The translations under genes were made by a program, and so were the position numbers. A stretch of 64,000 bases of DNA. It comes from Patescibacteria group bacterium. GTDB lineage: Bacteria > Patescibacteriota > WWE3 > JAMCXX01. The DNA lies in contig JAMCXX010000002.1 of NCBI GenBank assembly GCA_023474425.1, positions 4,217-68,216 of the forward strand, written 5' to 3'. The notes beneath the pieces are model-generated. The model made no database searches. It worked only from the letters and a program-made list of their open reading frames with translations, and was not told the origin of the DNA. Positions 16,236-56,499 of this stretch are shown here, one piece after another (position 1 is the stretch's first letter; the number at the start of each line of letters is the position of its first letter).

Positions 16236-16505
16236 TCAGGTACCGTAGACGGAAATCGGCAGGCTCATCAGGTCCGGTTCCTCGTCCAAAATTCCTTTTG
16301 CCCAACCGAACTTCGGAACCCAAAACGCGGCTTCGGCATCACACCACCATTCACGCGCCACTGGCCGCCATTGGTAGACTCCAGGAAACTTTGGAAGGGG
16401 ACCCTTGCGACACTTCAGCTCTTCCAAATCCTTCTTGACCTGAATAGGGCAAATCTCGCCTCCATCGAGAACCTCAACGATCTCGGTCGTGTCTTTCCAA
16501 GACAT
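16236..16505 (-). CDS. hypothetical Trp/Cys-rich 89-aa protein
   Basis: ATG at 16505 is preceded by GAGGAGGTG. The tracked ORF's upstream extension runs through the T-box terminator, so the start was trimmed. Confidence 0.55.
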   Translation of the reverse strand: MSWKDTTEIVEVLDGGEICPIQVKKDLEELKCRKGPLPKFPGVYQWRPVAREWWCDAEAAFWVPKFGWAKGILDEEPDLMSLPISVYGT

Positions 16506-16544: not shown

Positions 16545-16598
16545 CCAAAAAGGCCCTTGCTCATCAACAAATAGGTCTGTTGACAAACAAGGGCCCTT
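16545..16598 (-). terminator. intrinsic terminator of the T-box expression platform
   Basis: Minus strand AAGGGCCCUUG...CAAGGGCCUU followed by UUUGG. Confidence 0.75.
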
Positions 16599-16745
16599 AG
16601 ACTCTGCTAGGGCGGTGCCACCTTGATTTCTAACTCAATTACGATCTTTAACGGAATCTTCCGGCGGATTCTACCTCCCAGCCAAGCTGGGACTCTTTCC
16701 GCAGCTCCGGTGTGTCAGCACCATCAAAGCCTTTTGGTTACTAAG
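16545..16745 (-). promoter_or_regulatory. T-box riboswitch leader (probable tRNA-Asp specificity)
   Basis: The minus strand carries AAGGUGGCACCGCC. A canonical antiterminator forms as CAAGG/[UGGCACC bulge]/GCCCU...AGGGC/CCUUG. It competes with the terminator at 16545-16598. A K-turn-like UGAUGG and a candidate GAU specifier are present, and aspS lies downstream. Confidence 0.75.
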
Positions 16746-16749
16746 GCTA

Positions 16750-16777
16750 ATAGTACTCCTTTAAACTACGAAGTCAA
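16750..16777 (-). promoter_or_regulatory. putative sigma70-type promoter for the T-box leader
   Basis: Minus strand TTGACT, 16-nt spacer, TACTAT. Confidence 0.4.
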
Positions 16778-16890
16778 ATACGTCAGCAAAAAAACGAAAT
16801 TTAAGGCGGACGATTTATTCTCCGTTTCGCGCGAAAGGGTAAACGTGGTTATCTTAGTGTTTAGGACACTAGAGATATCGTACACCTTAG

Positions 16891-16919
16891 TTGACAAAAA
16901 AATTTAAAATCTCTAGACT
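16891..16919 (+). promoter_or_regulatory. putative promoter, divergent from the T-box promoter
   Basis: TTGACA, 17-nt spacer, TAGACT. Confidence 0.55.
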
Positions 16920-34731: not shown

Positions 34732-34752
34732 TGTCGACAAAACAGCATGTTG

Positions 34753-35157
34753 AAACGAGGAAGCTTGTAAGCCAGGTTCTGTTGTTATGGCGATCATCTC
34801 TCTAGTTTTGATGTTACTCAATAACTCCCCGATTTTACTCGGGATGCCCGCGTCTTTGCCTCTGTGTCGGCGAGTCATAGAAGCGTTCGGCGGTTACAGC
34901 CCCGGGGATTGCCTTAATCCCAACTTTACGTCGGGACGTTTCACCCACTCATCGTGCGGTCTTACAACCGTTTAGACAAATGCTCGTCTCTGTGGCTCTC
35001 AAATCCCGTCAATTCGGAATTTGTCCTCCCGCCGTTTCCGGTAGGAGACACTAGCCATTGCTGGTCGGGCCTTGCGGCCCGTTGGGCTGCCGACGGCTGC
35101 CTGGACTTTCCTCTACCCATAGCTGTAAGCGAAGGGTAGCGATCGCCCATCTTCCTC
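34753..35157 (-). ncRNA. rnpB: RNase P RNA (bacterial type A)
   Basis: The minus strand contains GAGGAAAGUCCAGGC (CR-I) and ACAGAACCUGGCUUA (CR-V). P1 pairs as GAGGAAG...CUUCCUC. The ORFs tracked across this region are spurious. Confidence 0.9.
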
Positions 35158-35241
35158 AATTCTATTTTACCACAAAATCCCGTCCCAACGCGGGCCGTGG
35201 CCGAGCCTTCGAATCAAACCTAATAACTTTAGAAAACCTAT

Positions 35242-56424: not shown

Positions 56425-56499
56425 TGGTCGGGGTGCGGGGAATTGGACCCCGTGCCTCTCGTACCCCATACGAGCGGTCTACCGATGACCTACACCCCG
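56425..56499 (-). tRNA. tRNA-Pro (anticodon GGG), CCA encoded
   Basis: Manual cloverleaf: acceptor CGGGGTG/CACCCCG, D stem GGTC/GACC, anticodon stem CTCGT/ACGAG with loop ATGGGGT, and T stem CGGGG/CCCCG with loop TCCAATT. Confidence 0.8.

Follow-up and report, generated by a model that had tools for sequence, protein, structure and literature searches.

A candidate Asp-specific T-box leader with a short Stem I and an intrinsic terminator upstream of aspS in a CPR bacterium

T-box leaders have been divided into classes by the architecture with which they recognise tRNA. Class I leaders have a long Stem I with a platform for the tRNA elbow, together with a Stem II; Class II leaders, of the glyQS type, are without Stem II; Class III leaders, exemplified by Nocardia farcinica ileS, have a short Stem I without the platform, carry the specifier in an apical loop of 5-6 nt and require Stem II; and Class IV leaders have a Stem I of intermediate length (PMC10482949). 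Class III ileS leaders are known from N. farcinica, Mycobacterium tuberculosis, and M. smegmatis (PDB 6UFM and 6UFG; PMC7583486, PMC10482949). Regulation in Classes III and IV is described as "mostly" translational (PMC10482949), a word that leaves room for known exceptions. Transcriptional T-boxes generally require a long Stem I and an elbow-binding platform for fast tRNA capture, and the short-Stem-I design has been associated with a control of translation in Actinobacteria that is slow and reversible (PMC7583486). Among known T-boxes, GAC is the preferred Asp specifier, and the short-stem model of TBDB was applied to Actinobacteria and to class-I matches with a truncated Stem I only (PMC7778990). 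No literature linking T-boxes with CPR, Patescibacteria, Parcubacteria, or Saccharibacteria was found in a search that was incomplete; an earlier description is possible. Sherwood et al. 2015 is reportedly the source for the Class III ileS T-boxes. Here, a leader on the minus strand of a 64-kb stretch of DNA from a CPR genome (hereafter the window) is compared with these systems.

The decoding half of the leader is compact. A sigma-70-like promoter, TTGACT-16-TACTAT, lies at 16777-16750 where the original prediction had placed it, identified by consensus match only, and the transcript is predicted to start near 16743, about 12 nt 5' of Stem I; comparable promoter hexamers occupy the equal relative position in three related loci (L046, L106, and L109). 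Stem I is ultrashort (29 nt, 16731-16703, minus strand) and is reproduced by the MFE fold. It is made up of a C-stem (GGC/GCU), a 3-nt bulge (UUU), tandem G.A pairs, a 5-bp helix (UGGUG/CACCG), and a 6-nt apical loop, CUGACA. This loop presents the Asp codon GAC (16716-16714) as the candidate specifier, with a conserved purine, A (16713), on its 3' side. Stem I has a K-turn at its base, GGC-UUU-GA...GA-GCU, and the UGAUGG that had been noted earlier as K-turn-like (16726-16721) belongs to it, the tandem G.A pairs being formed by 16725-16724 with their GA partners at 16707-16706. These GA/GA pairs are invariant in alignment A2; L046 is without a clear GA/GA. Stem II (16702-16664), also seen in the MFE fold, has a lower helix, GCGGA/UCCGC, a purine-rich internal loop, AAGAG / GGUAGAA, that is S-turn-like in sequence, and an upper hairpin. 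It is followed by Stem IIA, CGG-AAGAUU-CCG (16663-16652), by the F-box CGUUA (16653-16649), and by a IIA/B pseudoknot in which the loop nucleotides GAUU (16658-16655) pair with GAUC (16646-16643). The linker that remains before the T-box core (16642-16626) holds just a vestige of Stem III, no longer than 2-3 bp; Parcubacteria relatives have one or two proper hairpins in this position.

The T-box core, AAGGUGGCACCGCC (16624-16611), and the antiterminator around it (16625-16588, -11.3 kcal/mol) were found as originally described. Helix A1 joins CAAGG (16625-16621) to CCUUG (16592-16588), helix A2 joins GCCCU (16613-16609) to AGGGC (16597-16593), and the 7-nt bulge UGGCACC (16620-16614) lies between the two helices and has the UGGNACC form that marks T-boxes. 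The competing terminator of the original prediction is likewise present as an intrinsic terminator hairpin of about 23 bp (16598-16549) that shares 16598-16588, the antiterminator's 3' strand, and has a U-run, U5 (16551-16547), behind it. The terminator fold reaches -33.6 kcal/mol (z = -7.6), with none of 200 shuffles equally stable. The two structures are mutually exclusive, and their calculated energies (-11.3 versus -33.6 kcal/mol) would give the usual default-off layout. A Shine-Dalgarno sequence, GGAGG (16518-16514), is located about 30 nt past the terminator hairpin and takes no part in the two alternative folds.

This Shine-Dalgarno sequence belongs to a conserved hypothetical ORF of 89 aa (16505-16236, minus strand, ATG at 16505), which, and not aspS, comes first behind the terminator. 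The aspS gene follows at 16111-14771 on the minus strand, and its product is predicted to be a non-discriminating archaeal-type AspRS (NF003483, 462.9 bits versus a cut-off of 353), in agreement with the archaeal-type enzyme that had been suspected in this CPR context. Because no terminator-like site was found between the 89-aa ORF and aspS (16235-16112), the two are probably co-transcribed. A dozen homologs of the 89-aa ORF, 80-100 aa in length, share the motif PG.YQWRP...GW...LP, and this family of approximately 90-aa proteins gave no match in Pfam and NCBIfam. In every context examined, family members either adjoin an AspRS-like gene on its upstream side or follow an Asp/Asn T-box. Further members are encoded at L105:143-406, L106:388-675, L107:321-584, L108:178-441, and L109:369-671, and in L105, L107, and L108 the small ORF is immediately 5' of the AspRS-like gene. 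By this gene context, the protein may act together with the non-discriminating AspRS as a partner in its pathway.

The Rfam T-box model, RF00230, aligns end to end with the leader (16736-16586) at 40.7 bits in E-value mode, with an E-value of 1.5e-7 in a local search and of 1.5e-5 for the whole 64-kb window versus all 4227 families; its gathering score is 93 bits. At gathering thresholds, Rfam gave no T-box match in the whole window and just tRNA-Pro, the sole tRNA gene there (tRNA-Pro(GGG), 56425-56499, minus strand). In the RF00230 alignment, the K-turn, Stem II, the F-box/Stem IIA region, and the antiterminator align well, and about 74 Stem I model positions are deleted, so that the AG bulge, the distal loop, and the platform for the tRNA elbow are all missing. 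The low score is a consequence of these absent distal Stem I positions. The relatives that were tested score 30-63 bits, all below 93, and Rfam pipelines that work at the gathering threshold therefore miss these leaders. The RF00230 search that the original prediction had proposed as a check thus came out in two parts: the gathering threshold was missed, and the match is nonetheless significant. Since all members tested fall short for the same structural reason, the missed threshold is not a valid refutation of a T-box; the description "canonical", in contrast, cannot be kept for a leader with so much of Stem I missing. Elsewhere in the window, 34752-35158 (minus strand) matches bacterial class A RNase P RNA at 76.3 bits (gathering 100; E 2.4e-21). 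Because this match spans 407 nt versus a 367-position model, it is predicted to be a divergent RNase P RNA.

Relatives of the leader were recovered from a total of 20 further loci, equal to 18 distinct leaders, from Parcubacteria-like and Microgenomates-like sources and from one Saccharibacteria-labelled MAG. Many came from a metagenome scan with the pattern UGCUGACACA, 61-121 nt, GGUGGCACCGC, which returned 50 loci; 34 of these, dropped by inspection, were chance matches to coding sequence in GC-rich DNA, and 16 (14 distinct sequences) are true relatives. It should be noted that the invariance of UGCUGACACA and GGUGGCACCGC in these 16 loci is partly by construction, as they formed the search pattern; the independent witnesses for the specifier loop and the T-box core are the window, L046, L038, L106, and L109. 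Covariance model R1, built without the last four, finds them at 43, 33, 69.3, and 70.8 bits, respectively, and models R1 and R2 gave no further copies elsewhere in the window or in approximately 50 other aspS loci. The L046 locus has the synteny recJ, small ORF, leader, aspS, and its Stem I hairpin, GGUGCUGACACACC, is identical to that of the window at 14 of 14 nt, with an AspRS that is just 66% identical. It also has an additional hairpin, placed between Stem I and Stem II (L046:2072-2100, plus strand), and an AU-rich insert of about 70 nt 5' of the T-box core (L046:2170-2240, plus strand); the leader scaffold appears, from this example, to tolerate large insertions. L038, the Saccharibacteria-labelled MAG, encodes an AspRS 47% identical to that of the window and has a K-turn, the apical loop AGUAGACAC, Stem II, T-box, and terminator directly before aspS; no IIA/B element was found in its leader. 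The layout of the window recurs in L109, with the leader hairpin GGGG-CUGACA-CCCC, a terminator, a small ORF, and an AspRS-like gene.

Covariation among these relatives, which had been put forward as a way to check the fold, bore out the conservation of the Stem I/specifier structure. In the MAFFT alignment of the decoding module (n = 15), 93.9% of cells were paired and 13 of 20 pairs showed compensatory changes (0 of 500 shuffles; slid controls 25-49%). The model-based alignment (n = 19), which takes in four members left out of model building, gave 93.8% of cells paired and compensatory changes at 15 of 19 pairs (slid controls 31-46%), and none of 500 shuffles matched it on all five measures. 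For the antiterminator (n = 17), the corresponding values were 96.3% and 5 of 10 pairs (slid controls 31-51%); none of 500 shuffles reached the observed values, apart from the number of pairs, which 11 of 500 reached. The MAFFT and CM alignments misplace the extra hairpin of L046 and a 1-2-nt pseudoknot shift in L061, which counts as noise against the structure. The Stem I helix occurs as GGUG/CACC, GCUG/CAGC, GUUG/CAAC, ACUG/CAGU, GGGG/CCCC, and GACUAG/CUGGUC, and the lower helix of Stem II has compensatory changes at 5 of 5 pairs, next to a near-invariant AAGAA...AGUAGAA motif. The pseudoknot changes in a compensatory manner at 3 of 3 pairs (GAUU/GAUC, GUGC/GCAC, GUUC/GAAC, AAGC/GCUU, GGUAU/AUACC, CUUC/GAAG, and CGUU/AGCG). 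A terminator with U-run is present in 17 of 17 leaders analysed, those for which the downstream sequence extends far enough, at -19 to -38 kcal/mol, as an exclusive structure that is more stable than the antiterminator and re-uses its 3' strand, and the start codon of the relatives lies 31-101 nt past it. A plus-strand ORF that crosses the leader (16623-16907) is probably not coding, as the relatives differ by compensatory pair changes and, in the loops, by indels of lengths not divisible by three.

The specificity of the leader for Asp is supported, at the level of sequence, by the match between GAC followed by A in the apical loop and the aspS gene downstream, and thus the specificity that had been proposed stands with a different triplet. 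The GAU that had been taken as the specifier (16658-16656) exists, but it lies within Stem IIA's loop and contributes to the pseudoknot by pairing with 16646-16643. The CUGACA loop is also found in L046 and L109, both of which were found via proteins and not via the DNA pattern. Leaders with GAC stand before genes for archaeal-type AspRS, for short bacterial-type AspRS, and for an asparaginase, and a single leader with AAC precedes a different operon. In this AAC leader (L106:148-345, plus strand; R1 69.3 bits, R2 26.4 bits), which is of the same class, the apical loop is CUAACA and the bulge is UGGC, so that the Asn codon AAC followed by A occupies the slot held by GAC elsewhere. Of the evidence presented here, this swap speaks most strongly for a specifier role of the apical triplet. 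The operon of L106 encodes a small protein and then a YbaK-like aminoacyl-tRNA deacylase, and the leader possibly also controls a 305-aa ORF beyond an opposite-strand tRNA-Ala gene. No tRNA-Asp gene was found in the 64-kb window or in any related locus searched, and the anticodon GUC and the discriminator G73 of tRNA-Asp are assumed here from general tRNA-Asp identity rules.

The genes that follow the leaders are diverse. The two AspRS types are unrelated; the archaeal-type enzymes behind the metagenome leaders share 33-37% identity with that of the window, and in L061 and L081 the leader precedes a short bacterial-type AspRS. The closest named homologs of both types are from Parcubacteria (among them Lloydbacteria, Liptonbacteria, Campbellbacteria, and Kaiserbacteria). 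Labels of "Eisenbacteria" and "Chryseolinea" on two AspRS clusters were judged unreliable, the AspRS types of L087 and L061 being nearest to Parcubacteria. The Parcubacteria-like contig of L087 carries, in addition to its T-box leader, a LOOT RNA (RF03000; L087:312-433, minus strand; 81.2 bits versus gathering 46.4). In L059 (992-1650, plus strand), a GAC leader precedes an asparaginase (PF00710) and not aspS, and therefore the regulon spans Asp supply as well as tRNA charging.

The distribution of the leader is patchy. The window AspRS is identical to an NCBI MAG protein labelled Patescibacteria group bacterium; its nearest homologs, at 64-67% identity, are from Microgenomates, and a T-box core upstream of aspS was found in 0 of 39 Microgenomates GTDB loci, L038 alone being positive in that search. 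Look-ups of the AspRS neighbourhood in the closest metagenomic homologs were positive in 1 of 6 (L046), and the leader is absent from L101, a locus of Lloydbacteria, as well as from L103, a locus of ACD_24. Altogether, more than 45 related Microgenomates and Parcubacteria aspS loci are without the leader (L001-L037, L039, L045, L047-L050, and L101-L104), including that of the closest AspRS homolog (67% identity). This patchiness implies either repeated loss or lateral spread.

Taken together, we put at roughly 85% the probability that the leader is a tRNA-Asp-sensing, Class III-like T-box that acts by transcription attenuation, a reading in which tRNA binding, charge sensing, and termination are deduced from the sequence. 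Transcription would start near 16743, and the nascent leader would fold into the K-turn and 5-bp Stem I that displays GAC and A, Stem II with its S-turn-like loop, and the IIA/B pseudoknot. Stems I and II would jointly hold tRNA-Asp (anticodon GUC) by its anticodon stem-loop, as in a clamp, with no elbow contact. The 3' GCCA of an uncharged tRNA would pair with UGGC in the bulge (16620-16617) and stabilise the weak antiterminator (-11 kcal/mol), and RNA polymerase would continue to the 89-aa gene and on to aspS. With charged tRNA, or with none, the much stronger terminator (-34 kcal/mol) would form and the transcript would stop at the U-run after about 200 nt. The function of so short a stem in a kinetic, co-transcriptional mode is unproven, because transcriptional T-boxes generally need a long Stem I (PMC7583486). 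Also counting against the attenuation reading are the RF00230 score of 40.7 versus 93, the near-absent Stem III, and the many related aspS loci without a leader.

Other readings of the locus account for part of these observations. A canonical Class I T-box, with a long Stem I, GAU as an internal-loop specifier, and an elbow contact, would be in keeping with a discriminator half that is textbook and with Stem II, F-box, and pseudoknot, all of which also occur in Class I. Just 29 nt are present for Stem I, however, with about 74 RF00230 positions deleted and a score far under the gathering value; the span between promoter and Stem II has no sequence for a long Stem I; and the GAU in the IIA loop covaries with the pseudoknot strand, relatives having GUG, GUU, AAG, GGUAU, or CUU instead. 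This reading is already refuted by the sequence and is given next to no weight. It is unlikely, too, that the riboswitch acts chiefly on translation, in the manner of other Class III T-boxes, or on RNA stability and that the hairpin and U-run are incidental: the Shine-Dalgarno sequence, some 30 nt past the hairpin, participates in neither fold, and all 17 relatives retain a strong hairpin (-19 to -38 kcal/mol) with an immediate U-run.

The patchy distribution, with most close aspS loci negative, the vestigial Stem III, and the sub-threshold Rfam score would be in keeping with a decaying relic or a chance likeness, in which an ordinary terminator or leader works constitutively, resembles a T-box core by accident, and no longer responds to tRNA. 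Against this, the window has all functional elements intact, its Stem I hairpin is identical to that of L046 at 14 of 14 nt despite 66% AspRS identity, and compensatory changes are found in all helices and in the pseudoknot. A relic or chance likeness is accordingly regarded as very unlikely, and the preferred reading remains that of a functional, attenuating T-box.

A broader proposal, for which the probability is judged to be somewhat under one half, is that the leaders represent a CPR-wide, previously unannotated lineage of Asp/Asn T-boxes that combines Class III decoding with intrinsic termination and, in some genomes, controls a new protein of approximately 90 aa as a dedicated partner of the non-discriminating AspRS/Asn-tRNA pathway. 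CPR bacteria have very small genomes, in which few regulators are believed to be present. The leaders suggest that the supply of Asp- and Asn-tRNA in CPR bacteria may be under direct tRNA-sensing control. If true, such a CPR lineage would show that a transcriptional T-box can do without the distal platform of Stem I, and the short design with strong terminators in a conserved family offers a natural test of the kinetic argument (PMC7583486).

Compared with the described classes, the leader shares with Class II glyQS leaders transcriptional attenuation and a reduced architecture, but the reduction is the reverse: glyQS leaders retain a long Stem I and lose Stem II, unlike the Asp family described here. 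With Class I leaders (the Bacillus subtilis tyrS type, and aspS and hisS-aspS of Firmicutes) it has in common the antiterminator/terminator switch with default-off energetics, the T-box sequence AAGGUGGCACCGC, the K-turn, Stem II, F-box, and pseudoknot, and GAC as the Asp specifier. It differs from them in that its 29-nt Stem I is without the length, AG bulge, and distal loop of Class I, and in that the specifier is apical rather than in an internal loop. The closest likeness in architecture is to the Class III ileS leaders. Like these, it has a short Stem I (a 5-bp hairpin with a 6-nt loop) without a double T-loop elbow platform and with a K-turn at its base, a specifier and 3' purine in a 5-6-nt apical loop, a Stem II that contains an S-turn or a string of purines (the S-turn being assigned here by sequence), a UGGN T-box bulge, and a coaxial IIA/B pseudoknot with F-box, the latter being CGUUA in the window and CGUCA in M. 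tuberculosis and L046. Unlike the ileS leaders, in which the expression platform is a Shine-Dalgarno sequestrator, the leaders described here have an intrinsic terminator with a U-run; their specifier is that for Asp (GAC) or, in a single relative, for Asn (AAC), rather than Ile; their hosts are CPR/Patescibacteria rather than Actinobacteria; and Stem III is vestigial in the window, with the IIA/B pseudoknot lacking in L038. On the basis of these shared and divergent features, the leader is predicted to join a Class III architecture, as in the ileS leaders of Actinobacteria, to control by transcription attenuation.
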